Shown here: in pieces, positions 6,969-24,203 of the stretch
Position numbering within the stretch: the first letter of the stretch is position 1
How the letters are laid out: each line of letters starts with the position of its first letter
Assembly (NCBI GenBank): GCA_965651925.1
Contig: CBFGUK010000001.1
Location: 3,396-67,395 of the forward strand
Origin: an uncultured bacterium
GTDB lineage: Bacteria > Desulfobacterota > Binatia > HRBIN30 > CADEER01
Direction of reading: 5' to 3'
Length of the DNA: 64,000 nt
Program-made: the position numbers and the translations under genes
Notes under the pieces: model-generated
What the model saw: the letters and a program-made list of their open reading frames with translations, nothing else
What the model was told of the DNA's origin: nothing
The model's database searches: none

Positions 6969-6996
6969 CCGGTCACCGGTCACTGGTCACCGGTCA
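6969..6996. repeat. Tandem heptanucleotide array (CCGGTCA/CTGGTCA)x4, 8 nt downstream of the trx-TPR gene stop
   Basis: ccggtca ccggtca ctggtca ccggtca read directly; period 7. Confidence 0.8.
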
Positions 6997-7004
6997 CGCT
7001 TTTC

Positions 7005-7859
7005 CTACCGGAAGAGGACTTTTGCCAGCTCGGAACGGAAGCGGTCAGCGAGCGGATCGCCGGGACCGAGGAGATCGAAGATGTCGATCATCGCCTTGCG
7101 GGCGCCGTCGTCGCGGAAGGCGCGATCGCGCTGCACGATGGCGAGATAGTGCTCGAGCGCCTCCTCGTGGTTGCCGGCGGCGGCGAGCGCCTGGGCGAGC
7201 GTGAAGCGCGCCTCGAGGTCGTCGGGATTGGCATCCACCTGCGCGCGCAGCCCGGCCTCGTCGCCGGCGCCGGACTGGCGGATGCGGATCGCCGCCGCGA
7301 GGCGATCGGCGGCCTGACGATGCGGGCCGGGGGCGACGCGGTCGAGCAGCTCGAGCGCGGCGCTGTCCTCGTCGCGGCCCGCGAGGACCGTGGCGAGGCC
7401 GACCAGCGCCGGCTCGCAGCGCGGCTCGAGCTCGAGTGCGCGGCGGAACTCGCTTTCCGCCCCGGCGACGTCGCCGGCGGCGAGCAGCGCCTCGCCGGCG
7501 GCCGCGGTCTGTTCACCGACACTCGGCAACAGCCGGGCGAGGAACTCGCGCACCGCCGGCTCGGGCTGCGCACCGACGAACTGTGCGGCGAGCTGGCCGT
7601 CGCGCAGGCCGACGACGAACGGGATGCTCTGGACGCGGAAGACGCTGGCGAGCGCCGGATTCTCGTCGATGTTCACCTTGGCGAGCACGAAGGCACCGCC
7701 GTGTTCGTCGGCCAGGCGCTCGAGCAGCGGCCCGAGCGCGCGGCATGGTCCGCACCACGGCGCCCAGAAGTCGACCACCACCGGGACCTGCCTGGACCGT
7801 TCGATGACTTGGGCTTCGAAATCCGCGTCGGTAACGTCGATGACGTGCTGTCCGGGCAT
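7005..7859 (-). CDS. Thioredoxin domain protein with C-terminal TPR repeats (YbbN/CnoX-like co-chaperone)
   Basis: WAPWCGPC thioredoxin active site near N-terminus; C-terminal TPR-like helical repeats (EALEHYLAIVQRDRAF...). Confidence 0.8.
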   Translation of the reverse strand: MPGQHVIDVTDADFEAQVIERSRQVPVVVDFWAPWCGPCRALGPLLERLADEHGGAFVLAKVNIDENPALASVFRVQSIPFVVGLRDGQLAAQFVGAQPEPAVREFLARLLPSVGEQTAAAGEALLAAGDVAGAESEFRRALELEPRCEPALVGLATVLAGRDEDSAALELLDRVAPGPHRQAADRLAAAIRIRQSGAGDEAGLRAQVDANPDDLEARFTLAQALAAAGNHEEALEHYLAIVQRDRAFRDDGARKAMIDIFDLLGPGDPLADRFRSELAKVLFR

Positions 7860-7887
7860 GGAAGTCAGGATGCCAGATGCAGGTGAA

Positions 7888-7915
7888 GCTGTCAGCGGTC
7901 AGCCGTCGGCGGTCA
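7888..7915. repeat. Tandem heptanucleotide array (GCTGTCA GCGGTCA GCCGTCG GCGGTCA), left arm of element E, 29 nt upstream of trx-TPR start
   Basis: Direct reading; period 7; inverted relative to the 8021-8062 array. Confidence 0.75.
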
Positions 7916-8020
7916 GTCGGAAGCTGGACCGGCGCGGCGCGAAGCCCGGAATGAGGACGCCCCATGCACCCGGACCTGCTTCCGAACTTCGCGATCTTCG
8001 TCTTTGGGTTGGCTTCCCAG

Positions 8021-8062
8021 GCTGACAGCTGACTGCTGATGGCTGACAGCTGACCGCTGACA
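8021..8062. repeat. Tandem heptanucleotide array (GCTGACA)x6, right arm of element E, abutting the stop codon of the Hsp15-like gene
   Basis: gctgaca gctgact gctgatg gctgaca gctgacc gctgaca; reverse complement of the left-arm unit. Confidence 0.8.
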
Positions 8063-8063
8063 G

Positions 8064-8435
8064 CTATCCGAAGAACCGCTTCATCTGCCGCCGGTCCTTC
8101 TTCGTCGGGCGGCCGCCGCCGCGTTCGGGGTGGGGCGCGGCGGGGTCGGGTGGTGGGGGTGGCGGACTGCGATCCTCGTACAGGGCGCGTGCCGCCGTCG
8201 CCGGGCCGCGACGCTCGGCGATATCGATGACCTTCCAAATGCGTTTGCCGCCGGGGGTGGTGAACGTCACCTCGTCGCCGGGGCGGATCAGCTTGTGCGG
8301 CTTGGCGGTGGCGCCGTTCACCGTCACCTTCCCGCCGTCGCAGGCCTCGGCAGCCAGCGAGCGTGATTTGAAGGCGCGCGCCGCCCAGAGCCATCGGTCG
8401 GCGCGCGTTGCAGGGGACTGGGTCTGGTCCGTCAT
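8064..8435 (-). CDS. hslR: Ribosome-associated heat shock protein Hsp15 (S4 RNA-binding domain)
   Basis: RADRWLWAARAFKSRSLAAEACDGGKVTVNGATAKPHKLIRPGDEV matches the Hsp15 S4 domain; basic C-terminal tail. Confidence 0.7.
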   Translation of the reverse strand: MTDQTQSPATRADRWLWAARAFKSRSLAAEACDGGKVTVNGATAKPHKLIRPGDEVTFTTPGGKRIWKVIDIAERRGPATAARALYEDRSPPPPPPDPAAPHPERGGGRPTKKDRRQMKRFFG

Positions 8436-8492
8436 GTCGTCCCGGCAGAGGCGGCGGGGAGGGGGGAGCTCCCCGCCGCCGTGCCGGATCAC

Positions 8493-8711
8493 TCATGCGG
8501 CAGCGTGCTTCACCACGCCCTCCTCGTCCAGAGGGAGCGGTTCGAACGGCACCGACACGGTGTCCACGGCCGCCGGACGCTGGGCTTGCAGCACCAGCAC
8601 CAGCGTCCGCACCGCGGCGAGGAGCGCCGCGATGGCCAGACCGGTGAGGAACATGCCGCCGGACCAGGTCAGCGTCACGGGAATCACGCCCGTGTACGGA
8701 TACCAGAACAT
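8493..8711 (-). CDS. Small hypothetical membrane protein (72 aa, one TM helix)
   Basis: MFWYPYTGVIPVTLTWSGGMFLTGLAIAALLAAVRTLVLVL...; start chosen at internal ATG; no family recognised. Confidence 0.35.
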   Translation of the reverse strand: MFWYPYTGVIPVTLTWSGGMFLTGLAIAALLAAVRTLVLVLQAQRPAAVDTVSVPFEPLPLDEEGVVKHAAA

Positions 8712-8760
8712 GGAACACCTTCCTTTCAGGGTGACACTCCAGGTGCGGAACGTGCCGCGC

Positions 8761-9027
8761 CTAGGCCGCAACCGCGCGGATGCCGGTGCCGCCATTGACG
8801 CTGCTCCGCTCGACGCCGTCCGCCTCGACGGGTCCGAGGAACCACTCCATCGGCCGGCCGGTGTGGCGGGCGATGCGGAACAGAACCTCGGTCGAGGGGA
8901 TGCGGCCGTTCATGTAGTTGTAGACGGCCGACAGGCTCACGCCGATGTCGTACGCAAACGCCTTCGGCTCGTCTGCCACCACTTCGCGCAGCCGCTCAGC
9001 CACAAAATTCGCATCGAGCCCTTCCAT
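8761..9027 (-). CDS. XRE/Cro-C1-type helix-turn-helix transcriptional regulator (88 aa)
   Basis: KAFAYDIGVSLSAVYNYMNGRIPSTEVLFRIARHTG HTH motif; AGGAGG RBS 7 nt upstream of ATG. Confidence 0.7.
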   Translation of the reverse strand: MEGLDANFVAERLREVVADEPKAFAYDIGVSLSAVYNYMNGRIPSTEVLFRIARHTGRPMEWFLGPVEADGVERSSVNGGTGIRAVAA

Positions 9028-9143
9028 CGTCGAATCCTCCTTTCACAGTCGTTCGTGCTGCTCCCGCGCGCCGCGTGAGCTGACGGCTTCTCCGCCGGCC
9101 GGCCGGATCGCTCGCCGCCCTGGTCCTTCCGCGCCGAAGGGCC

Positions 9144-9187
9144 AAAAAAAAGGGCCACCGGTTTTCACCGGTGGCCCTTTGGGTTTG
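9144..9187. terminator. Strong bidirectional Rho-independent terminator (A-run, GGGCCACCGG-TTTTCA-CCGGTGGCCC hairpin, T-rich tail)
   Basis: Perfect 11-bp GC-rich stem flanked by AAAAAAAA and TTTGGGTTTG; reads as hairpin plus U8 on the minus strand, downstream of ddl. Confidence 0.85.
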
Positions 9188-9209
9188 AGATTCCTGGGGT
9201 GTGTTGCTG

Positions 9210-9380
9210 CTAGGAGACCCCTCCCGCGGGACCACCGGACGGTACCGGTCGAATGGCGATGCGCGCCTTCTTGGCGGCCGTCGCCACCGAACCCGTGTCC
9301 GTCTGCGCGCACGCGAACCACATCGCGCCGCCGTCGGCGATTAGATGATTGGTCGTGTGCGTGAACATGATCTGCATGGG
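9210..9380 (-). CDS. Possible small ORF (55 aa) between terminator and ddl; could instead be non-coding
   Basis: MQIMFTHTTNHLIADGGAMWFACAQTDTG...; no recognisable family, weak RBS. Confidence 0.2.
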   Translation of the reverse strand, partial: PMQIMFTHTTNHLIADGGAMWFACAQTDTGSVATAAKKARIAIRPVPSGGPAGGVS

Positions 9381-9539
9381 TCCCTGGATGAATTCCGTTG
9401 TGCGAATTTCCCTACACCCGCGATCGCGTCGGGCGCAAGGCATTTTCTCTCACGGTCGTGGAAGAAGGGCTTGCGGACCGCGGCGCCCGCGCTATGGGCG
9501 CGCGCCGCCCCGCCCGCGCAACGGACGGGCGTCCGGCGC

Positions 9540-10643
9540 TCAGCCCGCCGCCGCCCGCTCGCGACGCGCCGTGCAGCGCCCGATGGCGAGCTCGAGCAGA
9601 CGGCTGACGAGCGCCGGGCCGTCGATGCCGGCGGCAGCCCACATCTTCGGGTACATGCTGATCGAGGTGAACCCGGGAATGGTGTTGAGCTCGTTGACGT
9701 ACAGCGCACCGCTGTCGCGCTCGAGAAAGAAGTCGACGCGCGCCATGCCGGTACACTCGAGCGCCGCGTAGGCGCGCACGGCGAGCGCGCGCACCTGCTC
9801 GCGCGTCGCCTCGTCGAGCTCGGCGGGGACGCGCGTCTGCGCGTGGCTGTCGGCGGCGTACTTGTCCGCGTACGAGTAGAACGCCTCGCCGGGCACGATC
9901 TCGCCGGGAACGGCGGCCTGCGGGGCATCGTTGCCGAGCACGGCGCATTCGATTTCGCGCCCGTCGATGCCGCGCTCGATCAGCACCTTGGCGTCGAGCG
10001 CCAGCGCCGCCTCGATCGCCGCATCGAGCGTGGCGGCCGCGTCGGCGGCCACGCGCGTCACGCCGAGCGACGAGCCGAGGCTTGCCGGCTTGACGAACAG
10101 CGGGAAGCCGAGCGCGTCGATCGCGGCGCGCAGCGCCTCGCGCTCGGCCCGCCAGGAATGGGCGGTGACGGTGACGTACGGGACGATCGCGATGCCGGCA
10201 TCGCGCAGCAGGCGTTTGCAGACGTCCTTGTCCATGCACACCGCCGCCGCGAGCACGCCGACGCCGACGTACGGAACGTCGAACGTATCGAGCAGCCCCT
10301 GGATCGTGCCGTCCTCGCCGTACGGGCCGTGCAGCACCGGGAAGACGACGTCGACCGCCGGCAGCTCGTCGAGCGGGTGCTCGGGATCGATGAACCCGAG
10401 CCGCCCGTCGCGCGCCAGCGGCACCACCAGGCGGCCGGCGCCGGGCGCGACCTCATCCTCGAGCGCGTCGTACGCCTCCTCGTCGAGGAGATGCCAGCCG
10501 CCGCGGCGGTCGATGCCGATCAGGACCGGAGTCTGACGCTCCCGGTCGAGCGATTCGACGACGAAGCGCGACGAACGAATCGAGATCGGGTGTTCACCCG
10601 AGCGGCCGCCGAACAGGATCCCCACGCGGTCAACCGACGTCAT
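9540..10643 (-). CDS. ddl: D-alanine--D-alanine ligase
   Basis: RVGILFGGRSGEHPISIRSS... ATP-grasp Ddl hallmarks including GEDGTIQGLL and C-terminal NELNTIPGFT. Confidence 0.9.
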   Translation of the reverse strand: MTSVDRVGILFGGRSGEHPISIRSSRFVVESLDRERQTPVLIGIDRRGGWHLLDEEAYDALEDEVAPGAGRLVVPLARDGRLGFIDPEHPLDELPAVDVVFPVLHGPYGEDGTIQGLLDTFDVPYVGVGVLAAAVCMDKDVCKRLLRDAGIAIVPYVTVTAHSWRAEREALRAAIDALGFPLFVKPASLGSSLGVTRVAADAAATLDAAIEAALALDAKVLIERGIDGREIECAVLGNDAPQAAVPGEIVPGEAFYSYADKYAADSHAQTRVPAELDEATREQVRALAVRAYAALECTGMARVDFFLERDSGALYVNELNTIPGFTSISMYPKMWAAAGIDGPALVSRLLELAIGRCTARRERAAAG

Positions 10644-10674
10644 GTGCCGCCGGTTCTAGCGCCGGGGCAGCGGC

Positions 10675-10874
10675 GTGACCAGTGACCGCGTCGCGCAACG
10701 ATCCGGGAGCTGAACCGCCTTCCGGACATGGCGCTGTAGGCGGTCCTGGTTTCCGGGGCGCGAGAACGAACGGCCGGGCAAAGCCCAGCTGCCGTGACCA
10801 GTGACGAACCGAACGCTGCGGTGAAATGAGCGGAGACGACCGGTGACGGGTCACTGGTTACCAGTCACCGGTCA
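10675..10874. repeat. Composite intergenic element D: GTGACCA-type heptamer units at 10675-10688 and 10794-10807, and an inverted (CYGGTCA)x5 array at 10840-10874
   Basis: Heptamer units read directly; left and right arrays are reverse complements; lies between the ddl start and the stop of the small secreted-protein gene. Confidence 0.7.
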
Positions 10875-10882
10875 CCGCCAAC

Positions 10883-11167
10883 TCACATGTGCTCGCCCAT
10901 GCGATCGTAGGTGCCTTCCTCGCCGATCGGCTCGTAGCCGAAGATCTCGTCGAGGCCGGGGCGGGACACAATGTAGTGCAGCGGGCGCATCACCAGCCAT
11001 TCGACGGTGTAGCCCACCGGATGGATCAGGTAGTACGCGAGGCGAAGCGGGTGGCTGAACGCGTCCTCGTACTGTTCCTCGTCCGGGTAGCGATCGGCGG
11101 CGCCGGCCGTGCCGGTCCCGAGCGCAAGCATCGCCGTCATCATCGCAATCGCCAGCAGTCGCTTCAT
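10883..11167 (-). CDS. Small secreted hypothetical protein (94 aa, signal peptide)
   Basis: MKRLLAIAMMTAMLALGTGTAGAADRYPDEEQYED...; GGAG RBS; the upstream part of the 221-aa ORF is Arg-rich artefact. Confidence 0.5.
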   Translation of the reverse strand: MKRLLAIAMMTAMLALGTGTAGAADRYPDEEQYEDAFSHPLRLAYYLIHPVGYTVEWLVMRPLHYIVSRPGLDEIFGYEPIGEEGTYDRMGEHM

Positions 11168-11232
11168 CGAAGAGCTCCTTCCGCGTCGGCAGCGTAGCGG
11201 GCACCGGTGCCCCCGGCAACCGCGAACTGTAC

Positions 11233-12036
11233 TCAAAATTTGCCGTCGGGCTGACGATAGCCGATCAGGCTGACCTGACGGCCCGCCTGGCCGCCGCTGG
11301 CGCGATGCGAGAAGTACGCCCCGGCGGCACAGCGCGTACACGGACCGACGCTGGCGATCGCCTCGCCGCGGGCGCCGGCGGCGACGAGGATGGCGCGGTT
11401 CGCGGCGCGCAGATCGAGCTGCCCAAGGCGCCCGGCGGGCTGCCAGGCATCGGGCAACGCCCCCCAGCGGTCGGTCAGGCGCGCCCCGATCTCCGCTTCG
11501 ACCTCGTAGCAGCAGCCGCCGATCGAGGGGCCGAGCGCGAGCTGCCACGCCTCAAGCGGAATGCCGAGTGCCGTGCGGGCCTCCGTCAGGGCTGCTGCGG
11601 CGATGCCGGCGAGCGTTCCGCGCCAGCCGGCGTGCACGGCAAGCACGGCCCCGTGTGCCGGTGCCACGCCGAGCAGCGGCACGCAGTCGGCGGTCAGGAC
11701 AGCGAGCCCGACGCCATGGCTGGCGGCGAGCATCGCGTCCGCCTCGCCGACCGGCTCGTCCGGCGCCGAGACGTGCACGACGCGCGCGCCATGCACCTGG
11801 TGCATGCGCACGATGCGCAGCCCCGGCGCGGCGCGCGCCACGCGGCGCCAGTTCGCATCAACCGCCGCCGGCTCGTCGCCGACCGCCGCCGAGACGTTGA
11901 GCGACGCAAACGGCCCGGTGCTGTGGCCGCCGTGGCGACCGAAAAAGCCGTGCGTCAGGCCCGCGATGTCCGCCCAGGCCTCGACCCGCACGGCGGGCGG
12001 CGGGGTGGCATCGGGGACGCCCGGGACGGCAGCCAT
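11233..12036 (-). CDS. pgeF: Peptidoglycan editing factor PgeF / YfiH (polyphenol oxidase-like purine nucleoside phosphorylase family)
   Basis: GLTHGFFGRHGG...ADCVPLLG...HAGWRG motifs of the YfiH/DUF152 family. Confidence 0.8.
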   Translation of the reverse strand: MAAVPGVPDATPPPAVRVEAWADIAGLTHGFFGRHGGHSTGPFASLNVSAAVGDEPAAVDANWRRVARAAPGLRIVRMHQVHGARVVHVSAPDEPVGEADAMLAASHGVGLAVLTADCVPLLGVAPAHGAVLAVHAGWRGTLAGIAAAALTEARTALGIPLEAWQLALGPSIGGCCYEVEAEIGARLTDRWGALPDAWQPAGRLGQLDLRAANRAILVAAGARGEAIASVGPCTRCAAGAYFSHRASGGQAGRQVSLIGYRQPDGKF

Positions 12037-12039
12037 CGC

Positions 12040-12252
12040 TCAGCGCAATTCGCGCTTCACCAGCACCTGACCGTCGAGCGGCTCGCCCTTCGGCCCGGTG
12101 CGTCGTCCGCCGCGCTTCCCGAGTGTCGCCAGCGTGTCCGGGTTCACCCACGGCACGCCGTAGACACACGGCTTCGCCTGCCCGTCCTCGTCGATCGCCT
12201 CCTGGCTCGGAAACTCCGCGCGCGAGAAGTTGCTGACCAGTCGCTTGCCCAT
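12040..12252 (-). CDS. Hypothetical small protein (70 aa); start uncertain (alternative ATG at 12384)
   Basis: MGKRLVSNFSRAEFPSQEAIDEDGQAKPCVYGVPWVNPDTL...; stop is 4 nt from the pgeF start; no family recognised. Confidence 0.3.
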   Translation of the reverse strand: MGKRLVSNFSRAEFPSQEAIDEDGQAKPCVYGVPWVNPDTLATLGKRGGRRTGPKGEPLDGQVLVKRELR

Positions 12253-12506
12253 AACAGCCGACCGATATCGGAAGCGATGCGCGGAGCCAATGCCCCCCGG
12301 AGTCGCCGCTCGCTGCTCGAGCGCTCGTGGAATCAACACCGCCAGGGCGCCCGGGACGCCAAGTCCGGAATGAGTCGTTCCCATGGCGTCCTGGCGGTTC
12401 AACTTCGGATTGTTGCTGGGCGTACGGAAGCCCGCCCGCTCCGGTCGCAACCAGGCCGCGTTGAATCGCCCATGGGCGGTTGGTAGACGAACCGTTCGGC
12501 GCGCGG

Positions 12507-15344
12507 ATGGAATACAAGCACACTCTGAACCTGCCGCAGACGGACTTTCCGATGCGCGGCAACCTCCCGGCACGCGAACCCGAGATCCTGCAGCGGTGGC
12601 GCGACGGACGGCTCTACCAGCGGCTGCTCGACCAGACCGCCGGCGGCGAGCGCTACGTGCTGCACGACGGTCCGCCGTACGCGAACGGCAACGTGCACCT
12701 CGGCACGGCGCTGAACAAGATCATCAAGGACATCATCGTCAAGCATCAGCTCATGTGCGGACGGCACGCGCCGTACGTGCCGGGGTGGGACTGCCACGGC
12801 ATGCCGATCGAGCATCAGGTGCTGCGCGATCTCGGCGCCCAGGCGCGCGCCCTGCCCCGCCTCGAGATCCGCCGGCGCTGCCGCGCGTTCGCCGAGAAGT
12901 TCGTCGGCGTGCAGCGCGAACAGTTCCAGCGCCTCGGCGTGCTCGGCGACTGGGAACACCCGTACCTGACGATGACGCCGGAGTACGAGGCGGCGATCGT
13001 CCGCGTGTTCCGCCGCCTCGTCGAGCGCGGCTTCATCTACCGCGGCCTGCGCCCGGTGCACTGGTGCGCGGTGTGTTCGACGGCGCTCGCCGAGGCGGAG
13101 GTCGAGTACACCGACCACGTCTCGCCCTCGATCTACGTACGTTTTCCGTTCACCGGCACGGCCGACGACGCCGCCGCGCTCGCGCGTCGCCCGGACGATG
13201 CGGCGCGCCTTCGCGACGCGGCCGCGGCGGGCCGGCTGTCGGTGGTGATCTGGACCACGACGCCGTGGACGCTGCCGGCGAATCTCGCAGTCTGCTTCAA
13301 CCCGGCGCTCGACTACGTCGCGCTCGATCTCGGCGACGAGACGGTGATCGTCGCTGCGCGCCTCGCCGAGGCGTTCCTCGCCGCCACCGGCCTCGCCGCG
13401 CAGGAAGGGCGGCGCATGCCGATCGACGTCCTGCCGCTCGACGGGCGCGACGTGTTCCGCCATCCCCTGTTCGACCGTGCCTCGCGTGCCGTGTTCGAGT
13501 CGCACGTCACCGCCGACACCGGCACGGGCTGCGTGCACACCGCACCCGGCCACGGCTACGAGGACTTCCAGGTCGGGCAGAAGTACGGCCTGCCGACGCT
13601 GACGCCGGTCGATGCGCACGGCCGCTTCACCGACGAGGCCGGCCCGTACGCCGGCGGCAAGGTGTTCGAGAGCAATGCGCGCATCGTCGACGACCTGCGC
13701 GCCGCCGGCCGCCTCGTGCACGGCGAGTCGCACGCGCATGCGTACCCGCACTGCTGGCGCTGCAAGAACCCGCTGATCTTCCGCGCCACCGAGCAGTGGT
13801 TCCTGCGCGTCGATCACGCCGGCCTGCGCGAGACCGCGCGCGCCGAGATCGACACCGTGCGCTGGGTGCCGCAGTGGGGCCATGACCGCATCAGCAACAT
13901 GATGCAGACGCGCCCCGACTGGTGCCTGTCGCGCCAGCGCGCCTGGGGCGTGCCGATTCCCGCCTTCGCCTGCGACGGCTGCGGCGCGTTCCACGCCGAC
14001 CCGGCCGTGATCGCGCACGTCGAGGCGATCTTCCGCGAACGCGGCGCCGATGCCTGGTACGAGCTGGCGCCGCGCGAGCTGCTGCCGGCCGGCTACCGCT
14101 GTGCGTGTGGCAGCGAGGCGTTCACGCCCGACGACAACATCCTCGACGTCTGGTTCGATTCCGGCTGCTCGCACGACGCGGTGCTGCACGAGCGCGGGCT
14201 CGGCTGGCCCGCCGATTTGTACGTCGAGGCGGTCGACCAGCACCGCGGCTGGTTCCAGGTCTCGCTGATCACCGCGGTGGCGACCGCCGGCAAGGCGCCG
14301 TACCGCGGCGTGCTGACGCACGGCCTCATCCTCGACCAGCACGCGAAGAAGATGTCGAAGTCGCTCGGCAACGTCATCGCACCCGAGGAGATCATCGCGA
14401 AGCACGGCGCCGACATCCTGCGCCTGCTGTTCGCCTCGGTCGACTTCACCGCCGACACCTGTTTCTCGCAGAACCTCGTCACGCCGCTGCTCGAGAGCTA
14501 CCGCAAGATCCGCAACACCTGCCGCTTCCTGCTCGGCAACCTCGCCGGCTTCGATCCGGCGCGCGACACCGTGCCGGTCGACGCGCTGCCGGAGCTCGAC
14601 CGCTGGATCCTGCATCGCGGCCAGCAGCTGCTCGCGCGCGCCCGCGGCGCCTACGACGAGTTCACGTTCCACCACGTCGTGCAGGGGCTGGTGAACTTCT
14701 GCGCCGTCGACCTCAGCGCGCTCTATCTCGACATCGTCAAGGACCGCCTCTACACCTCGGCGCCCGACGCCCACGGTCGGCGCGCGGCGCAGACGACGCT
14801 CTGGCACCTGCTCGACCTGCTCGTCCGCACGATGGCGCCGATCCTGTCGTACACGGCCGACGAGATCTGGACCTACGTGCCCGGGCGGCAGGCGGCGTCG
14901 GTGTTCGAGGCCGGGCTGCCGGCAGTCGATCCGGCGCTGGTCGACGACGCGCTCGCGGCGCGCTGGGAACAGATCCTCGCCGCCCGCGCCGTGGTCACGA
15001 AGGCCCTCGAGGAGGCGCGCAAGAGCGGCGCGATCGGCCATTCGCTCGATGCGCGCGTGCAGCTCGTCGCCGGTCCCGCGCTGCGGCCGATTCTCGACAG
15101 CCTGCGCGACACGCTGCCGGCACTGTTCATCGTCTCACAGGTCGAGCTCGCCGAGACGCTCGCCGACAGCCCGCACCACGCGCGCTCGGACGATCTCGCG
15201 GTCGCCGTGATGCCGGCGCGCGGCGCGAAGTGCGGCCGCTGCTGGAACTTCAGCGAGGCGGTCGGGCGCGATGCCGGGCACCCGGAGCTCTGCGAGCGCT
15301 GCCTGCCGGTGGTCCAGGCGCTGCCGGCGCAGGCGCATCCGTGA
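12507..15344 (+). CDS. ileS: Isoleucine--tRNA ligase
   Basis: MEYKHTLNLPQTDFPMRGNL N-terminus, PPYANGNVHLG (HIGH) and KMSKSLGN motifs; C-terminal zinc-binding CxxC pairs. Confidence 0.95.
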   Translation: MEYKHTLNLPQTDFPMRGNLPAREPEILQRWRDGRLYQRLLDQTAGGERYVLHDGPPYANGNVHLGTALNKIIKDIIVKHQLMCGRHAPYVPGWDCHGMPIEHQVLRDLGAQARALPRLEIRRRCRAFAEKFVGVQREQFQRLGVLGDWEHPYLTMTPEYEAAIVRVFRRLVERGFIYRGLRPVHWCAVCSTALAEAEVEYTDHVSPSIYVRFPFTGTADDAAALARRPDDAARLRDAAAAGRLSVVIWTTTPWTLPANLAVCFNPALDYVALDLGDETVIVAARLAEAFLAATGLAAQEGRRMPIDVLPLDGRDVFRHPLFDRASRAVFESHVTADTGTGCVHTAPGHGYEDFQVGQKYGLPTLTPVDAHGRFTDEAGPYAGGKVFESNARIVDDLRAAGRLVHGESHAHAYPHCWRCKNPLIFRATEQWFLRVDHAGLRETARAEIDTVRWVPQWGHDRISNMMQTRPDWCLSRQRAWGVPIPAFACDGCGAFHADPAVIAHVEAIFRERGADAWYELAPRELLPAGYRCACGSEAFTPDDNILDVWFDSGCSHDAVLHERGLGWPADLYVEAVDQHRGWFQVSLITAVATAGKAPYRGVLTHGLILDQHAKKMSKSLGNVIAPEEIIAKHGADILRLLFASVDFTADTCFSQNLVTPLLESYRKIRNTCRFLLGNLAGFDPARDTVPVDALPELDRWILHRGQQLLARARGAYDEFTFHHVVQGLVNFCAVDLSALYLDIVKDRLYTSAPDAHGRRAAQTTLWHLLDLLVRTMAPILSYTADEIWTYVPGRQAASVFEAGLPAVDPALVDDALAARWEQILAARAVVTKALEEARKSGAIGHSLDARVQLVAGPALRPILDSLRDTLPALFIVSQVELAETLADSPHHARSDDLAVAVMPARGAKCGRCWNFSEAVGRDAGHPELCERCLPVVQALPAQAHP

Positions 15345-15850
15345 CGAAGTCCGCGTTCGTCGCGCTGGTCGCCGGCAGCGTGGTCGTCGTCGACCAGCTC
15401 ACCAAGGCGCTGATCCGGGCGGAGCTCGCGTTGCACGACGGCTTCGCGGTCGTGCCCGGCTTCTTCTCGATCATCCACGCCGCGAACCGCGGCGCCGCCT
15501 TCAGCCTGTTCGCGGATGCGCACGACGGCGTGCGGCTGCCGTTCTTCTTCATCGCCGCCGCGGTGGCGATCGGCTTCCTGGTCTACTTCATCCGCCAGGT
15601 CGCCCCGTCGCAGCGCTGGCTGCTGTTCGCGCTCGCCGGCGTGCTCGGCGGTGCGATCGGCAATCTCGTCGACCGGGTGCTGTTCGGTGCCGTCACCGAC
15701 TTCCTCCTCCTCCATTACCGCGGCTGGGCGTGGCCGGCGTTCAACGTCGCCGACACGTTCATCACCATCGGCGTGATCATTCTGATCGCGCACTCGCTGT
15801 TCGGCGACGACCCCTCGCCGGCCGCGCGCACCAGCGCCGAACACGGCTGA
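15341..15850 (+). CDS. lspA: Lipoprotein signal peptidase II
   Basis: GTG start overlapping ileS stop (GTGA); NRGAAFS and FNVAD motifs, four TM helices. Confidence 0.85.
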   Translation: MTKSAFVALVAGSVVVVDQLTKALIRAELALHDGFAVVPGFFSIIHAANRGAAFSLFADAHDGVRLPFFFIAAAVAIGFLVYFIRQVAPSQRWLLFALAGVLGGAIGNLVDRVLFGAVTDFLLLHYRGWAWPAFNVADTFITIGVIILIAHSLFGDDPSPAARTSAEHG

Positions 15851-15893
15851 GCGGCGCTCGCCTCGTCGCGCCGCGCGGGCTAACACGTCGCGC

Positions 15894-16799: not shown

Positions 16800-16856
16800 C
16801 GTGAACCGCGACGAGCGCGGACGGGGCGGCGGTTCGGAAGGGGGCACAAAACACGA

Positions 16857-16886
16857 ACGGCCGGCGCGGGAATCCGCGCCGGCCGT
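16857..16886. terminator. Bidirectional terminator hairpin between convergent OMP gene and glnA (CGGCCGGCGCGG-gaat-CCGCGCCGGCCG)
   Basis: 12-bp perfect GC stem seen directly between two convergent stops; a second small hairpin follows (GATCCCGCgaGCGGGATC). Confidence 0.6.
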
Positions 16887-16909
16887 CGTGCTCGATCCCG
16901 CGAGCGGGA

Positions 16910-18322: not shown

Positions 18323-18404
18323 TGTGGCACTACCTCCTTGCGTTGTTGCGGTGCTCCCGTGCCCCGGGAGCGCGGCGGTTGAGAGATGAAAATGGAGCAG
18401 CGGA

Positions 18405-18908
<504 letters not shown>

Positions 18909-19228
18909 TCACGCGGCACTTCGGTCCATACCGACGCGCCACACTCCCGCGTCCGCACTCGTTTCGCCTTCCCGACCGGTCGGTAATGACCGGCATCACT
19001 TCTTCTGATGCTGATTTTTTCGCAAACGGACGGATGCTGTCCGTCTCCGGCTCGGTGTTGAAGCAACGGGCATGCCCGATGCGAGTTGCTGGTGGACATG
19101 GCGGTCGCGTGATCGGCTGGCTGTCGCCAGCTGCCTGCAAACTGGGCAGTGCCCATGGAGTGAGCACCTGGCGGGACGCTTTGGGCGGCGATCAGCCGCG
19201 GAGGGGTGAGGGCGAAGGAGGAATCGCA

Positions 19229-19345
19229 ATGGGCCGAGGGAACACTCGACTTCGTGTCCTCGTCACCTCGGTGGCCGATCCAGTTGAAGAACCGCCGGCG
19301 CGCACGGACGGACACAAAGAGCGTCGCCGCAGTTGGCAAGGCTGA
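19229..19345 (+). CDS. Possible small ORF (38 aa) with near-perfect SD (GAAGGAGGAATCGCAATG); may be non-coding
   Basis: MGRGNTRLRVLVTSVADPVEEPPARTDGHKERRRSWQG; overlaps a partial copy of the conserved hairpin right arm (ctcgacttcgtgtcctcg, 19246-19263). Confidence 0.2.
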   Translation: MGRGNTRLRVLVTSVADPVEEPPARTDGHKERRRSWQG

Positions 19346-19381
19346 GGGGTTGTGTTAGGCACCGGCACTTCCGGCACGGCA

Positions 19382-19458
19382 GTTCACAACGGGGTGTAGC
19401 TCAGACTGGTAGAGCGCACGGTTCGGGACCGTGAGGTCGCTGGTTCAAGTCCAGTCAC
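19382..19458 (+). tRNA. tRNA-Pro (anticodon CGG)
   Basis: Cloverleaf folded by hand: acceptor CGGGGTG/CACCCCG, D-arm GCTC...GAGC, anticodon stem CACGG/CCGTG with loop TTCGGGA, T-arm GCTGG-TTCAAGT-CCAGT, discriminator A plus encoded CCA. Confidence 0.85.
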
Positions 19459-19474
19459 CCCGACCATTTCTTCC

Positions 19475-20122
19475 ATGCTGCGGACGATGCTCGCGTGGGC
19501 CGTGCTTCTCGGCTCGGTGTTCGCCGCCGGGCGCGGCGCGGCCGAGCCGGGGCCGGCGACGGTGCATGGCGCGGCGGCCGTGAACGTGCGCCAGCAGCCC
19601 AGCGCCGACAGCCGCGCGATCGAGTCGTTGCCGCGCGGCAGCCGGGTCACGGTCGAAGACACGACGGGCGACTGGTCGCACGTGGTCCTCGACGACGGCC
19701 GGCGCGGATACATGCGCTCCAGCTTCCTCGCACCGGTTGTCACCGAAGCGGCCGAGACAGCGGCCACGGCGACGCCGACGACGGGTGTGGCCGGAACGCC
19801 GATCGAGGCGCCAGCGCCCGATGCGGCCGGGCCGGCGCCGGCAGTGGACCACGAGCTCGAGCAGCTGCACGAACGGCTGGCGGCGCTCGAGGCGGCGCTG
19901 GCGGCCACCGCACAGCCGACCGCGACGCACCTGCCGGGCGCCGGCGCGTCCCATCCCGCGATCCCGGCAGCGCCGGTGGCGACCATCGTCGTGCCCCCCG
20001 CGGCGCTGGACGTGGGTCCGGCGCTGGCACTCGCGGGCGTCGGACTGATCGTCGGCTTCCTGTTCGGCACGCTATACGGCCAGCGCCAGGAACGCAGTCG
20101 GCGCTCGCGCGTCCGCTTCTGA
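19475..20122 (+). CDS. Secreted SH3b-domain protein with Ala/Pro-rich linker and C-terminal membrane anchor
   Basis: Signal peptide MLRTMLAWAVLLGSVFAAG; SH3b-like motif AAAVNVRQQPSADSRAIESLPRGSRVTVEDTTGDWSHVVLDDGRRGYM; C-terminal ALALAGVGLIVGFLFGTLYG TM helix. Confidence 0.65.
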   Translation: MLRTMLAWAVLLGSVFAAGRGAAEPGPATVHGAAAVNVRQQPSADSRAIESLPRGSRVTVEDTTGDWSHVVLDDGRRGYMRSSFLAPVVTEAAETAATATPTTGVAGTPIEAPAPDAAGPAPAVDHELEQLHERLAALEAALAATAQPTATHLPGAGASHPAIPAAPVATIVVPPAALDVGPALALAGVGLIVGFLFGTLYGQRQERSRRSRVRF

Positions 20123-20216
20123 GCGTTGGCCGGCCGCGGCAGCGGCCGCCCCGACGATCCGCACGCCGCGCGCGCCCTCTGCCGCCGATCGGGCTGCGGC
20201 AAATCGCGGCGCGAAC

Positions 20217-20879
20217 TCACGCCGCCGGCGCGGTGAGTCGCCGGATCTCGTCGACCGTCGCCCGGTAGTCGGGGGTGTCGAAGATGCCGGTGCCGATGAC
20301 GAACACCTCGGCGCCGGCGGCGGCGATTTCGGCGACGTTGTGCGTCTTCACGCCGCCGTCCACCTCGATCAGCAGGTCGAGGCCGCGCTCGCGCTTGGTG
20401 CGCTGTGCGAGGGCGAGCTTCTCGAGCGCCGACGGGATGAACGCCTGGCCGCCGAAGCCGGGATTGACGCTCATCACCAGCACCATCTCGAGATCGGGCA
20501 GGATGCTGTCGAGCGTGTGGAACGGCGTCGCCGGATTGAGGACCGCAGCGGGCCGGCAGCCGTGGTTGCGGATGTCCTGCACGACCGCGTGCAGGTGCGG
20601 GCAGGTCTCCTGGTGCACGGAGATGTACGTTGCGCCGGCGCGCGCGTACTCGCCGATGTAGCGCTCGGGGTTGGTGATCATGAGATGGACGTCGAGCGGC
20701 AGCGACGTGCAGCGGCGGATCGCTTCGACGACCGGCGGCCCGATGGTCAGGTTGGGCACGAAGTGCCCGTCCATGACGTCGACGTGGATCCAGTCCGCGC
20801 CGGCATCCTCGACGGCCTTCACCTCCTCGCCCAGCCGGGCGAAGTCGGCGGCGAGAATCGATGCGGCTATCCGCGTCAC
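20217..20879 (-). CDS. rpe: Ribulose-phosphate 3-epimerase
   Basis: IAASILAADFARLGEEV...HVDVMDGHFVPNLTIG...MSVNPGFGGQ; GTG start inferred 10 nt after the rsmB stop. Confidence 0.85.
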   Translation of the reverse strand: MTRIAASILAADFARLGEEVKAVEDAGADWIHVDVMDGHFVPNLTIGPPVVEAIRRCTSLPLDVHLMITNPERYIGEYARAGATYISVHQETCPHLHAVVQDIRNHGCRPAAVLNPATPFHTLDSILPDLEMVLVMSVNPGFGGQAFIPSALEKLALAQRTKRERGLDLLIEVDGGVKTHNVAEIAAAGAEVFVIGTGIFDTPDYRATVDEIRRLTAPAA

Positions 20880-20889
20880 GCTGCGGACG

Positions 20890-22299
20890 CTATCGCGGAT
20901 CGCCACCGGAAGCGAGGCGCAGGCGCGCGGCGAAGAAGCCGTCGAGCCCGTGCCGGTGCGGCGCGGTGCGCAAGATGCCGCGGGCATCGAGCAGCGCATG
21001 CGCGGCAGCGGGCAGCAGCGGTCGCGGATCTTCGATCCGGAAGGCCGGATGCGCGGCGAGGAAGCGGTCGAGCACGTCGTCGTTCTCGATGCGGGCGATC
21101 GTGCAGGTGGCGTACACCAGCACGCCGCCGGGGCGCACGGCGCTGCTCACGGCTGCCAGCAGGTTCGCCTGCAGGTCGGCGAGCGCGGCGAGGTCGTCGG
21201 GCGTGCGCCGCCAGCGGATCTCCGGGTGCTGGCGCAGCGTGCCGAGCCCCGAACACGGGGCGTCGACGAGCACCGCGTCGAACTGCTGCCCGGCGCGAAA
21301 CGGCGGCGTGGCCGCATCGGCCTGCAGCGCCGCGACCCGCACGCCGAGCCGCACCGCCTCGCGCTGCGCGCGCGCCAGCCCCGCGCCGTGCAGGTCGCCG
21401 GCGACGACGAGGCCGCGCTCGCCGACCGCGCACGCGAGCGCGAGCGACTTGCCGCCCGGCGCGGCGCACGCGTCGAGCACGCGATCGCCAGGCCCGGCAC
21501 CGACGAGCAGGCCGACGAGCTGCGAGGCTTCGCCCTGCACGGCAAACCAGCCCGCGGCATGGCCGGGCAGCTGCGCGGGATCGAGCGGCGCCTCGAGCAC
21601 CACGCCGTCTGGCGCATAGGTGGTGGGCCGGGCCGTGAGGTCGGCGGCGGCGAACGCCTCGAGCAGCGCCGCGCGCGAGATGCGCGCGGCGTGGACGCGC
21701 AGCACCGTCGGCGCCGGCTCGTTGTCGGCGGCGAGCAGCGCCTCGGTCTCGGCCGCACCGAGCTCGGCGAGCCAGCGCTCGACCAGCCACTGCGGATGCG
21801 AATACTCGCTCGCCAGCACCGCGGCGCGGTCGGCGCCGGGCGGCGCCCCGAGCGCGGGCTGCTCGCGCAGGAAGCGGCGCAGCAGCGCGTTGACGAGGCC
21901 GCTCGGCGCACCGCCCTTGATCGTCCGGGCGAGCTCGACCGCGGTATCGACGGCGGCGAACTCCGGCACGCGGTCGAGCTTGATCAGCTGGAACAGCGCC
22001 ATTCGCAACAGCGTCCGCACCGCGGCGTCGAGCTGCTCGGGCGGCCGTCCGAGCCGCGTCAGTGCCTGATCGAGCAACCCCTGCCAGGCGAGCGTGCCGT
22101 AGACGAGCCGCGTCGCCAGCGCGCGGTCGCGCGGCGCGAGCGCGGCGCCGGCGAGCGCACTGCCGAGCACGGCATCGGCGTACGCGCCGTCCTCGACCGC
22201 ATTCAGCACGCGCCAGGCGAGCTGGCGCGCCTCACTCGTGCGCGGCCGGCGCGCCAAGGCGGTCTCCGACGGCCAGCGCGCCACCGCGCGCGAACTCAC
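20890..22299 (-). CDS. rsmB: 16S rRNA (cytosine967-C5)-methyltransferase RsmB/Sun; true start probably internal, near the fmt stop at ~22230
   Basis: NusB-like N-domain plus SAM-MTase motifs (DACAAPGGKS, DAPCSGLGT). The annotated ATG overlaps fmt by 68 nt, so a downstream non-ATG start is likely. Confidence 0.8.
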   Translation of the reverse strand: MSSRAVARWPSETALARRPRTSEARQLAWRVLNAVEDGAYADAVLGSALAGAALAPRDRALATRLVYGTLAWQGLLDQALTRLGRPPEQLDAAVRTLLRMALFQLIKLDRVPEFAAVDTAVELARTIKGGAPSGLVNALLRRFLREQPALGAPPGADRAAVLASEYSHPQWLVERWLAELGAAETEALLAADNEPAPTVLRVHAARISRAALLEAFAAADLTARPTTYAPDGVVLEAPLDPAQLPGHAAGWFAVQGEASQLVGLLVGAGPGDRVLDACAAPGGKSLALACAVGERGLVVAGDLHGAGLARAQREAVRLGVRVAALQADAATPPFRAGQQFDAVLVDAPCSGLGTLRQHPEIRWRRTPDDLAALADLQANLLAAVSSAVRPGGVLVYATCTIARIENDDVLDRFLAAHPAFRIEDPRPLLPAAAHALLDARGILRTAPHRHGLDGFFAARLRLASGGDPR

Positions 22300-23182
22300 G
22301 CGCCGGAAGCGGCTTGCGGCCCTCGAGCTGCAGCGTCGCGATCGCCAGCGTGCCGTCGCCGGTGGCGACGCGGATCACGTCGTCGATGCCGGTCACCGTG
22401 CCCGGCGGCGCCGCGCCGCCCGCCGGCTCGGCCCGCGCCGCGTGCACCTTGAGCCGCCGGTCACCGAGCGTGGTGTACGCGGATGGCCAGGGATGGAAGC
22501 CGCGCACCCGGCGCGCGAGCTCGGTCGCCGGCCGTTGCCAGTCGATCACCCCCTGCTCGCGCGCAATCATCGGCGCCAGCGTCGCCTGCTGGTGATCCTG
22601 CGGCGTCGCGGTCAGCGTGCCGGCGTGCAGGGCCGCCAGGGCGTCCATCAGCGCCTCCGCACCGAGCGTCGCGAGGCGTGTCTGCAAGGCGCCGTAGGTC
22701 TCGTCTGGACCGATCGGGGTCGCCCGCTGCAGCAGGATGTCGCCCTCGTCCATGCGCTCGTTCATGCGCATGATCGTCACGCCGGTTTCGCGGTCGCCGG
22801 CGAGAATGGCCCACTGAATCGGCGCCGCGCCACGCCAACGCGGCAGCAGCGAGGCATGCACGTTGATGCAGCCCAGCCGCGGCAGCTCGAGGATGCGCGA
22901 CGGCAGGATGCGGCCATAGGCGGCGACGACCGCGAGATCGGGCGCCCACGCGGCCAGCTGCGCCGGCAGCTCGTCGGTCTTCACCCGCAGCGGTTGCGCG
23001 ACCGCGATTCCGTGCTGCTCGGCGAGCTGCTTCACCGGCGGCGCCTGCAGGCGCTGTCCGCGCCCGGCGGGCCGGTCGGGCTGGCTGACGACGCCGACCA
23101 CCTGATCGGGGCCGTCGAGCAGCGCATGCAGACTTGGCACCGCGAAGTCCGGCGTGCCGAAGAAAACGATGCGGTAGCGCAT
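22232..23182 (-). CDS. fmt: Methionyl-tRNA formyltransferase
   Basis: MRYRIVFFGTPDFAVPSL...INVHASLLPRWRGAAPIQ; ATG at 23180-23182. The longer ORF N-terminus merely translates heptamer array B. Confidence 0.9.
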   Translation of the reverse strand: MRYRIVFFGTPDFAVPSLHALLDGPDQVVGVVSQPDRPAGRGQRLQAPPVKQLAEQHGIAVAQPLRVKTDELPAQLAAWAPDLAVVAAYGRILPSRILELPRLGCINVHASLLPRWRGAAPIQWAILAGDRETGVTIMRMNERMDEGDILLQRATPIGPDETYGALQTRLATLGAEALMDALAALHAGTLTATPQDHQQATLAPMIAREQGVIDWQRPATELARRVRGFHPWPSAYTTLGDRRLKVHAARAEPAGGAAPPGTVTGIDDVIRVATGDGTLAIATLQLEGRKPLPAREFARGGALAVGDRLGAPAAHE

Positions 23183-23186
23183 GGGA

Positions 23187-23221
23187 GCGGTCAGCAGTCG
23201 GCCGTCAGCGGTCAGCCGACC
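23187..23221. repeat. Tandem heptanucleotide array B (GCGGTCA GCAGTCG GCCGTCA GCGGTCA GCCGACC), starting 5 nt upstream of the fmt start codon
   Basis: Period-7 units read directly; replaces any Shine-Dalgarno sequence for fmt. Confidence 0.75.
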
Positions 23222-23250
23222 GATTCGAGAATCCGCCACCGAGGGCAGCG

Positions 23251-23348
23251 AGGACACCGGGTCGAGTCATCAGAACCACCACCGGGAACAGAGCGAGTCG
23301 ACCATCAGCACCGAGGGGACGGAACCAGTTCGACGTCGTGTCCTCCCG
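23251..23348. repeat. Conserved intergenic hairpin element copy B (GGACACCGGGTCGAG ... TTCGACGTCGTGTCCTCCC), degenerate
   Basis: Arms match copy A at 6887-6944; the downstream conserved tail GTGGCCAATCGGTCCGG matches A (GTGGCCAGATTCCGACCGG). Confidence 0.65.
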
Positions 23349-23395
23349 ACTTCCGTGGCCAATCGGTCCGGCAACGGAGAGGTCCGGGAAACACG

Positions 23396-23956
23396 TCAGA
23401 TGCCGGGCTCGTCGGGGTGCTCGGGCGCGCGCTTGAAGGTGTCGAGATCGACGCCGTCGCGGATCATCTTGCGCAGCTTGCGCCGGTAGGAGTCGCGCTT
23501 GAGCGGGCTGATCCGGTCGATGAACAGCTTGCCGTCGAGATGGTCGAGCTCGTGCTGCAGCGCCACGGCGAGCAGCCCCTCGGCCTCGAGCGCGACCTCC
23601 TGCTGCTCGGGCGTCCACGCCTTGAGCAGGATCCGCGCGCTGCGCTTCACCTCGGCGCTGTAGTCGACCACCGACAGGCAGCCCTCTTCCCAGAGGATCG
23701 TGCCCTCGCGCTCGGCGATCACCGGATTGATCAGCTTCAGCAGGTGCTTGCCGGGATTCTCGCCGTCGACGTCGACGACGATCATGCGCTCGCTGATGCC
23801 GATCTGCGGCGCGGCGAGCCCGACCCCCGGCGCCGCGTACATCGTCTCGGCCATGTCGCGCAGCACCTCGTCGGTGGTGCCGTCGATGTTCGCGACCTCG
23901 ACCGCCGTCTCCTTCAGCACCGGCTCGGGGTACTTGAGAATGCGACGCAGCGCCAT
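23396..23956 (-). CDS. def: Peptide deformylase
   Basis: MALRRILKYPEPVLKE...GVGLAAPQIG...EGCLSV...HELDHLDG motifs 1-3; ATG at 23954-23956. Confidence 0.9.
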   Translation of the reverse strand: MALRRILKYPEPVLKETAVEVANIDGTTDEVLRDMAETMYAAPGVGLAAPQIGISERMIVVDVDGENPGKHLLKLINPVIAEREGTILWEEGCLSVVDYSAEVKRSARILLKAWTPEQQEVALEAEGLLAVALQHELDHLDGKLFIDRISPLKRDSYRRKLRKMIRDGVDLDTFKRAPEHPDEPGI

Positions 23957-24047
23957 CGCCGTACCGTAGCCGAATCCCGCCGGCGATGCAGCAGGCCCCA
24001 CCGGCCGCCGGTGTCCCGTCGAACGCTGCCCCCGCTGAGGTCCCTCT

Positions 24048-24135
24048 GAGGCGCTGACACGAAGTCGAGCAATTCCTTCGACTCCGCGTCCTCTGCGCCT
24101 CGCTGGCACACCCGCTCGCCAAACCGTCAGAGTTG
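24048..24135. repeat. Conserved intergenic hairpin element copy C (GAGGCGC-TGACACGAAGTCGAG...TTCGACTCCGCGTCCTCTGCGCCTC plus conserved tail GCTGGCACAC)
   Basis: Outer 7-bp stem GAGGCGC/GCGCCTC and inner GTCGA/TCGAC palindrome; homologous to copies A and B. Confidence 0.6.
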
Positions 24136-24160
24136 CCGGCCTTGTGACCGGGCCCGGTCT

Positions 24161-24203
24161 CTGGTCACCGGGTCACCGGTCACTGGTCACCGGTCACCGG
24201 TCA
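24161..24203. repeat. Tandem heptanucleotide array C (CYGGTCA)x6, ending 4 nt from the priA stop codon
   Basis: ctggtca ccgggtca ccggtca ctggtca ccggtca ccggtca read directly; an inverted GTGACCG unit lies at 24144-24150. Confidence 0.8.

Follow-up and report, generated by a model that had tools for sequence, protein, structure and literature searches.

Short arrays of tandem heptamers at gene ends in an uncultured relative of Candidatus Binatia

Heptamer arrays in the window

The DNA analysed here, called the window throughout, is a stretch of 64,000 nucleotides from an uncultured bacterium (assembly GCA_965651925.1, contig CBFGUK010000001.1, positions 3,396 to 67,395 of the forward strand), with a G+C content of 71%. 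It carries a series of minus-strand genes, among them those for a thioredoxin-TPR protein, ddl, fmt, def and priA, and several of the junctions in this series are occupied by short arrays of 7-bp units built on the core GTCA. The same multi-unit block was found at many unrelated loci, where its copies lie at cistron boundaries, typically 0-15 nt past a stop codon. Among relatives at 76-92% protein identity, units have been gained or lost and whole arrays have appeared or disappeared.

The arrays and their neighbours are given below in the order of the window. The gene series was drawn from open reading frames (ORFs) supported by G+C content at third codon positions (GC3) and from Pfam matches.

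No coordinates given, minus strand: luciferase-like monooxygenase gene, first in the minus-strand series
6969-6996, minus strand: array A, four units CCGGTCA/CTGGTCA, 8 nt past the thioredoxin-TPR stop; on the mRNA, UGACCGG UGACCAG UGACCGG UGACCGG
7005-7859, minus strand: thioredoxin-TPR gene (stop 7005-7007, ATG 7859-7857)
7888-7915, minus strand: 3' arm of array D, four units GCNGTCA (CUGACNG on the mRNA), ending 28 nt before the thioredoxin-TPR ATG
7916-8020, minus strand: spacer of array D, unique, with no second match in the window
8021-8064, minus strand: 5' arm of array D, six units (GCUGUCA, GCGGUCA and so on, on the mRNA)
8064-8492, minus strand: S4/Hsp15-like gene (stop 8066-8064)
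8761-9027, minus strand: HTH_3 gene
9540-10643, minus strand: ddl (ATG 10643-10641)
10675-10689, minus strand: array E-left 1, two units, mRNA GGUCACUGGUCAC, 32 nt upstream of the ddl ATG
10794-10808, minus strand: array E-left 2, two units, a direct copy of CGTGACCAGTGAC, 119 nt from E-left 1
10837-10878, minus strand: array E-right, five to six units whose orientation switches midway, 4 nt past the stop of the 112-aa ORF
Stop at 10885-10883, minus strand: 112-aa ORF without a Pfam match
Between the 112-aa ORF and fmt, minus strand: Cu-oxidase_4 gene
22232-23182, minus strand: fmt (ATG 23182-23180)
23187-23221, minus strand: array F, four to five units GCNGTCA, ending 4 nt before the fmt ATG; on the mRNA, CUGACCG CUGACGG CCGACUG CUGACCG
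23396 to about 23956, minus strand: def
24145-24210, minus strand: array G, six to seven units CYGGTCA, one of them of 8 nt, plus the palindrome GACCGGGCCCGGTC at 24146-24159
24208-26718, minus strand: priA (stop 24210-24208)

The arrays are a real, non-random feature of this DNA. The pattern GTCANNNGTCA (GTCA-N3-GTCA) has 16 matches on the two strands of the window; dinucleotide-preserving shuffles give an expectation of 1.42, and a count of 16 was not attained in any of 100. GTCA cores spaced by 5, 6, 8 or 9 gave 0-3 matches apiece in the window. Tandem Repeats Finder assigned period 7 to every array. The arrays are head-to-tail 7-bp units beyond chance. Fifteen of the 16 matches fall within seven arrays in five intergenic regions; the last one, at 53424, has two units inside an ORF and is consistent with chance. 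All seven arrays lie outside the GC3-supported genes of the window, and with an intergenic fraction of 0.16 the chance of finding five independent loci all in intergenic DNA is about 1e-4. The units fall into two families, CYGGTCA in arrays A, E (all three parts) and G, and GCNGTCA in D (both arms) and F. A block of 27 nt is identical between arrays A and G, and only the arrays are held in common between the intergenic regions of the window, the spacers being unique. At gathering score, no Rfam family was placed on the arrays; the only Rfam matches in the whole window were a tRNA and a ZTP riboswitch.

A first, sequence-only reading of this DNA had described period-7 arrays of two related units close to stops and starts, some of them as inverted pairs, and had set aside clustered regularly interspaced short palindromic repeats and codon repeats; all of this is borne out. 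The array sites it gave were right, except that array G extends to 24210 and includes the unit of 8 nt. On the mRNA, the priA stop lies within the degenerate first unit of this array (the last one in window coordinates), and the first exact UGAC follows 4 nt further on. The distances given for stops (4-8 nt) become 0-8 nt, since the 5' arm of array D and the S4/Hsp15-like stop codon share one base, the last of that codon, and the range given for starts (5-32 nt) is too narrow at its lower end, the fmt ATG being 4 nt from array F. No Shine-Dalgarno sequence lies between array F and this ATG.

Elements D and E had both been taken for inverted pairs. Element D is indeed a true inverted pair, with 40-nt arms that are 80% complementary across 99 nt, and its predicted fold contains a 21-bp perfect stem (-100.7 kcal/mol, z -4.6). 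Element E is built differently: array E-right is a self-contained palindrome or hairpin of 18 bp (89% complementary, z -3.4), and the two 2-unit arrays stand apart from it. Arrays A and G are predicted to fold more weakly, through ACCGGT palindromes; the hairpins of G have z -4.6, and that of A is weak (z -2.5).

A second repeated element adjoins the heptamer arrays. At 6870-6958, 23250-23345 and 24048-24101 there are long hairpins whose arms contain GAGGACRCCGRGTCGA, with a Shine-Dalgarno-like GGAGGA in the 5' arm, and each of them lies next to an array. The hairpin at 6870-6958 has a 30-nt stem that is 93% complementary (z -8.2). In all three cases the sense (minus) strand folds better than the plus strand (-75.1 vs -70.4, -36.5 vs -32.2 and -35.0 vs -27.3), and the copy between def and fmt is retained, with altered sequence, in a relative with 90% protein identity. 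These hairpins have no match in Rfam.

Other features of the window were noted in passing. The riboswitch is of the ZMP/ZTP type (pfl motif), at 48180-48262 on the minus strand; it scores 55.2 bits where the gathering score is 39, and lies upstream of a gene at 46987-48135. Long imperfect repeats of period 6, 12 or 18, with CGCGCACGCCGA-type units, lie inside large ORFs at 600-2260, 33735-34000 and 35740-36100; these are low-complexity coding repeats, unrelated to the heptamers. ARAGORN reported an 88-nt tRNA-like sequence at 34071-34158 (plus strand) with an ambiguous two-base anticodon, for which Rfam made no call at its gathering score, and a normal tRNA-Pro(CGG) is present at 19390-19466.

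Placement in metagenomes and change among relatives

The arrays are not confined to this organism. The exact 21-mer CCGGTCACTGGTCACCGGTCA is present on at least 120 JGI soil metagenome contigs, to the listed ones of which the counts below refer; their median G+C is 0.65 and their flanks are nearly all different. When one genome per species was scanned for four GTCA-core units, more than 119 loci in many phyla were found among the matches listed, which included Acidobacteriota, Planctomycetota, Cyanobacteria, Chloroflexota, Bacteroidota, Streptomyces and Burkholderiales; for example, (CTGGTCA)n and (AACAGTC)n were seen at loci of cyanobacteria. We rejected the idea of a universal GTCA core, as heptamer arrays of control cores are present in viral contigs too (GCTA 59, ATGC 72 and GACT at least 120, with at least 120 for GTCA itself) and the published families use other units.

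In the metagenome sample, 163 of the 176 arrays are intergenic, and most have 3-5 units. Start-codon distances were discarded here because the GTG and stop codons within arrays bias the starts of longest ORFs. For 66 of the 96 single CYGGTCA arrays, a gene on the TGAC strand ends upstream, at a median distance of 6 nt and in 41 cases within 10 nt; a converging stop within 10 nt on the other side of the array was seen in only 1 of 32. In 32 cases the gene stop is itself a TGA inside the array (first TGA 21, second 3, third 8), and TGAC is on the sense strand in every one (32:0). Where the stop lies 2-20 nt outside the array, TGAC is on the sense strand of the gene by 44:3 (p = 2.5e-10). The same polarity is found between convergent genes (15:3), and for this reason avoidance of Rho within operons was rejected as its cause. 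Outside stops in register with the heptad phase (distances of 4 and 11 nt) numbered 10 of 47, compared to about 7 expected, which is not significant. For GTCAG-type arrays, polarity with respect to stops was 20 vs 8 with a crude gene caller and 35 vs 33 in an ORF-based recount, and we make no claim for it.

Inverted partners are common in these loci. In 36 pairs the gaps range from 9 to 136 nt, with a median of 42, every spacer is unique, and the predicted folding energies are about -33 to -100 kcal/mol. The order of the arms is set by the unit type, with GTCAC-type pairs running GTGAC...GTCAC (10:0 and 34:0) and GTCAG-type pairs running GTCAG...CTGAC (12:1 and 2:0), and elements D and E of the window follow this rule. 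At the array boundaries, CG precedes the first TGAC, positions -8 to -5 form an A-rich tract, and the last unit is followed by CGGT. Clustering of the flanking proteins returned only large paralogous families (TctC, ABC ATPases). The commonest of these was the TctC/Bug tripartite tricarboxylate receptor, with 32 members at 22 loci in the metagenome sample, and the carrier genomes therefore have large Bug expansions. This frequency probably reflects gene abundance rather than a link to the repeats.

Within one strain the arrays are stable, while unit numbers shift over short evolutionary distances. The nearest named homologues of the proteins searched are from Candidatus Binatia. The identical thioredoxin-TPR protein is encoded on contigs of one ENA and two Logan metagenome assemblies (the same-strain assemblies include ENA ERZ23329302 and Logan SRR17295755/6). 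These contigs are 99.9-100% identical to the window, their unit numbers are equal to those of the window, and copy numbers are identical across five independent assemblies.

The relatives, named here by the identity of their proteins to those of the window (76-92%), differ from this. In the 92% relative, at the junction of the S4/Hsp15-like and thioredoxin-TPR genes (S4-trx), the 5' arm of D has one unit, compared to six in the window, and the 3' arm three, compared to four; the spacer of D could be aligned only in part. Array A keeps its position and unit order in the 92% and 86% relatives, and three lineages, with proteins 86-92% identical, share at least 25 nt of it unchanged, though the flanks differ. 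Two syntenic 76% relatives have no arrays at the S4-trx locus, where the spacer is 68 nt in one of them (L131) and 204 nt in the window. Array F has five units in the 90% relative, compared to four in the window, in the same place directly before the fmt ATG, and about 50 nt before def this relative carries a GTCAC-type array as well, which is missing from the window. Array G is absent in the 88% relative, in which GGGGC pentamers follow priA; its def-fmt spacer is occupied by an inverted pair of another heptamer, GTCAGGG/GCCGGGG ... CCCTGAC, whose end is at the fmt ATG. In the 83% relative, the def-fmt gap is about 10 nt, with no repeat. It can therefore be concluded, from the missing arrays and short junctions of relatives, that the arrays are recent, lineage-specific additions to originally short junctions. 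The intergenic junctions of this clade seem to be general hot spots for repeat growth; in the priA-def and def-fmt spacers of the 88% relative and the S4-trx spacer of the 86% relative (L130), the short-period repeats comprise the pentamers, the heptamer pair and also runs of the hexamers GGTATC/GGAATC and GATGCC. We also considered whether an array could supply the stop to a truncated gene, and rejected it, as the stop positions of trx, priA and S4 match those of array-free orthologues.

The change in unit number between relatives (6 vs 1, 4 vs 3, 4 vs 5) is what the earlier reading had expected from slippage, and the non-random placement also holds on a larger scale, with the median of 6 nt to the upstream stop and the 44:3 polarity in the 120 metagenome loci. 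There is also a practical side. Two same-strain contigs end inside array A, independent short-read assemblies from several samples all end inside arrays A, G or their counterparts in relatives, and every contig of the 92% and 86% relatives breaks in array A. Since the arrays break short-read assemblies in this way, metagenome-assembled genomes of these lineages are fragmented.

Comparison with the relatives brought out some further features of the same region. The ddl gene (9540-10643) is inverted in the window with respect to the two syntenic 76% relatives (L131 7764-8867, L132 6576-7667), while gene order and strand are unchanged to either side of it. One junction of the inversion holds array group E, and the other a canonical terminator with CCACCGGT/ACCGGTGG in its stem. 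Two short sequences are conserved in relatives while the spacers around them diverge, namely ATCTGGCATC (7869-7878), 9-10 nt before the thioredoxin-TPR ATG, and GCCTGCTGCATC (23995-24010), about 40 nt before the def ATG. These may be promoter or translation-initiation signals.

Origin and possible role of the arrays

The reading that we favour, tentatively and with somewhat less than even confidence, is that the arrays are dispersed, self-propagating intergenic repeats like the repetitive extragenic palindromic (REP) or the short tandemly repeated repetitive (STRR) sequences, which would be tolerated at cistron boundaries and would form hairpins on the transcript just past the stop. Two sub-families are present here, GTCAGCN and, on the sense strand, GTGACCR. 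More than 100 loci have one 21-27-nt block in common, down to its CCG/CTG/CCG order, which independent slippage cannot produce, and the family must therefore be copied between loci. Short TGAC homology, frequently that of a TGA stop codon, could seed such copying by gene conversion or template switching, with local slippage of units alongside, and copies would be retained only where they are harmless, immediately 3' of stops. In the CYGGTCA family the mRNA reads UGAC, so that three units suffice to put UGA in every frame. In many copies an inverted partner lies beyond a unique spacer, and in these the region is predicted to fold into a long stem-loop. On the transcript, the role of the arrays could then be that of REPs in E. 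coli, where a stable structure would sit within the ribosome footprint past the stop and between cistrons, and would modulate termination, 3'-end stability and the coupling of neighbouring cistrons.

Several results weigh against REP-like or STRR-like repeats of this kind. The 44:3 polarity beside an outside stop is not explained by tolerated insertion alone. The sense and antisense folding energies of the pairs show no asymmetry (8 vs 11, p = 0.30) and the window arrays are mixed, which gives no sign that RNA structure as such has been under selection; the absence of arrays from close relatives likewise counts against a structural-RNA function. After stops, as in D of the window, GCNGTCA units read GUCAG, which contains no stop codon, and UGA in three frames is for that reason not a general rule. 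Among 450 flanking proteins no transposase or protein like the REP-associated tyrosine transposase (RAYT) recurs that could mobilise or bind the arrays; the co-occurring protein family suggested by the sequence-only reading was likewise missing from this set. Finally, genes in the metagenome loci were called by a heuristic, namely the longest ORF after a GC3 filter, and only the stop-codon distances are reliable.

A possible though rather doubtful alternative is that the arrays are neutral or selfish simple sequence repeats (SSRs), in which slippage-prone heptamers expand in place from stop-containing seeds (TGAC, TAG-C) with no effect on expression, so that placement and polarity simply mirror the positions of seeds and of harmless insertion sites. 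Heptanucleotide SSRs are over-represented in most bacterial genomes, with slippage as the proposed cause (Mrazek et al. 2007), and since viral contigs contain heptamer arrays of control cores as well, a special sequence is not required. The preference for the first TGA of the array as the gene stop (21 cases, compared to 3 and 8 in the other frames) fits such seeds, as do the gene ends CGGATAG (S4) and GTGAGGG (priA), which resemble the unit in register; the absence of arrays in slightly more distant relatives, where other repeat families occupy the same spacers, and the symmetric folding are also in its favour. The block shared by so many loci is not accounted for by slippage, however, and three further points count against pure neutrality: the narrow array length, mostly 3-5 units, which is unlike free-running microsatellites; the identity of array A in three lineages with differing flanks; and the polarity, which remains when the stop is outside the array. 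It is unlikely that the arrays are binding sites with one heptad per protein subunit, read as DNA by an omega-like ribbon-helix-helix (RHH) protein or as RNA by a protein of the cold-shock, S1 or CsrA type such as has been proposed for the TAACTGA repeats, by which cistron boundaries would be organised or regulated. A conserved 4-nt core with a variable 3-nt linker, direct and inverted arrangements with a polarity fixed for each unit type, and the strong sense-strand polarity beside stops could all be expected of such sites; array F stands in place of the fmt Shine-Dalgarno region, like the TAACTGA repeats of Beggiatoaceae, and the literature describes CspB as binding heptamer repeats with one protein per heptamer. 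However, neither the window nor the 120 loci yielded a linked candidate gene, close relatives keep the genes without the arrays and so have no conserved regulon, and many heptamer sequences act alike across taxa, which points to a general process rather than to one specific factor.

The strict polarity and the arm order, fixed in every inverted pair across phyla, could also mark dedicated machinery, either an enzyme working directionally at gene ends, where it would add heptads or copy them, or a protein that reads heptads and recognises cistron boundaries. We consider this quite unlikely; if true, it would give the heptamer repeats of bacteria, unexplained since 1990, a specific function. More conventional elements are highly unlikely, whether Rho-independent terminators or miniature inverted-repeat transposable elements (MITEs) and REP doublets forming hairpins (REPINs), moved by a transposase and with the arrays as terminal inverted repeats, to which the earlier reading had likened those of D and E. 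Hairpins do lie directly after genes, and inverted arms enclose spacers of about 100 bp, with REPINs and MITEs being similar in size and location. But a T-run follows none of the arrays and none was scored as a terminator, while a canonical terminator was found at 9149-9180 in the same window; several arrays are within operon-like gene strings. The spacers, in the window and in the 36 pairs, share no conserved interior, the array boundaries have no target-site duplication and no GTAG head, and neither a RAYT nor a transposase recurs among the 450 proteins flanking the arrays. Least probable of all are the phase-variation loci of the earlier reading, where slippage in unit number would switch the neighbouring genes. 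Unit number does differ among related lineages, and part of the literature describes heptanucleotide SSRs as drivers of phase variation in Haemophilus. The neighbours, however, are essential housekeeping genes (priA, def, fmt, ddl, thioredoxin), the arrays are short (3-6 units) and outside ORFs, no sigma-70-like promoter spans them in the window, and copy numbers are identical in all five assemblies of the strain. As the arrays are past the stop codon, the reading frame is irrelevant, though seven is not a multiple of three. We infer that the arrays are neither a phase-variation switch nor an intrinsic terminator.

The host is uncultured and not open to manipulation. What the loci offer are rules that any mechanism must explain, namely the 6-nt median stop distance, the 44:3 polarity, the frequent use of the stop as first unit and the fixed arm order. 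They also provide orthologous states before and after expansion, for example at short operon junctions such as def-fmt that have been enlarged by such repeats.

Comparison with known repeat classes

Repeats that combine some of these features are known from several bacteria. REPs, with the related bacterial interspersed mosaic elements (BIMEs) and REPINs, are found in Enterobacteria and Pseudomonas as short, imperfect extragenic palindromes, single or as inverted doublets, often within 15 nt past a stop, and the arrays likewise are extragenic imperfect palindromes near gene 3' ends. They differ in consisting of tandem heptamers and in having no GTAG head, and no RAYT gene was found among their flanking proteins; REPINs, moreover, are doublets copied with a conserved spacer, which is not what the array spacers show. 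According to PMC12306157, which refers to Liang et al. 2015, ribosomes stall and expression falls when a REP lies within 15 nt of a stop; REPs also stabilise upstream mRNA.

The GGGAATC heptamers of Xanthomonas and GGGGAYT heptamers of Nostoc are intergenic and form single arrays or convergent inverted pairs (Rehm et al. 2015, PMC4692102). Most of them lie 0-50 bp from a stop with the G-rich strand coding, or upstream of starts with the G-rich strand non-coding, and they occur at the same gene junctions in related species with variable length (PMC4692102). Their units form G-quadruplexes, in contrast to the window units, which are not G-runs and whose pair polarity depends on the unit type. 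In marine Beggiatoaceae, the TAACTGA repeats are stop-carrying heptamers that lie a few nt before starts and replace the Shine-Dalgarno sequence (MacGregor 2015, PMC4679880). Array F shares this arrangement, with four CUGACNN units, 4 nt and the fmt AUG, and the core CUGA is common to both. In the window and the metagenomes, however, the arrays mostly follow stops and inverted pairs are common, whereas the TAACTGA repeats included one indirect repeat in 170 sets.

The omega repressor of inc18 plasmids, an RHH protein, binds contiguous 7-bp heptads WATCACW in direct or inverted orientation, with one dimer on each. Its operators resemble GGTCACY, but they are a few promoter-proximal plasmid sites, as opposed to hundreds of chromosomal post-stop sites with no linked RHH gene.

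The closest relatives of the arrays are the heptameric tandem repeats. In the survey by Mrazek et al. 2007, heptanucleotides were the commonest long SSR (LSSR) in most genomes. The STRR sequences of cyanobacteria form hairpins between cistrons such as hupS-hupL, and their function is unexplained. Like STRR and LSSR, the arrays consist of 7-bp tandem units at dispersed intergenic sites and are capable of forming hairpins between cistrons; those of the window include runs of three or more copies at dispersed extragenic loci, with unit number varying at conserved sites. One of the classical STRR units, reported by Mazel and colleagues in 1990, is TTGGTCA, which has the GGTCA core. In the strict sense, STRR are sequences of heterocystous cyanobacteria with the units CCCCAGT, TTGGTCA and CAACAGT, whereas the present arrays are from a high-GC Candidatus Binatia relative, have other units and are short (3-6 units). 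For STRR, we found no report of a tight, oriented apposition to stops as quantified here.

Heptameric intergenic repeats were described in 1990 (STRR), 2007 (LSSR) and 2015 (Xanthomonas, Beggiatoa), with no function found. The arrays belong to this long-known and functionally unexplained class. No new system is shown, but within the class the CYGGTCA/GCNGTCA arrays are a new family, and an abundant one, in uncultured high-GC soil bacteria.

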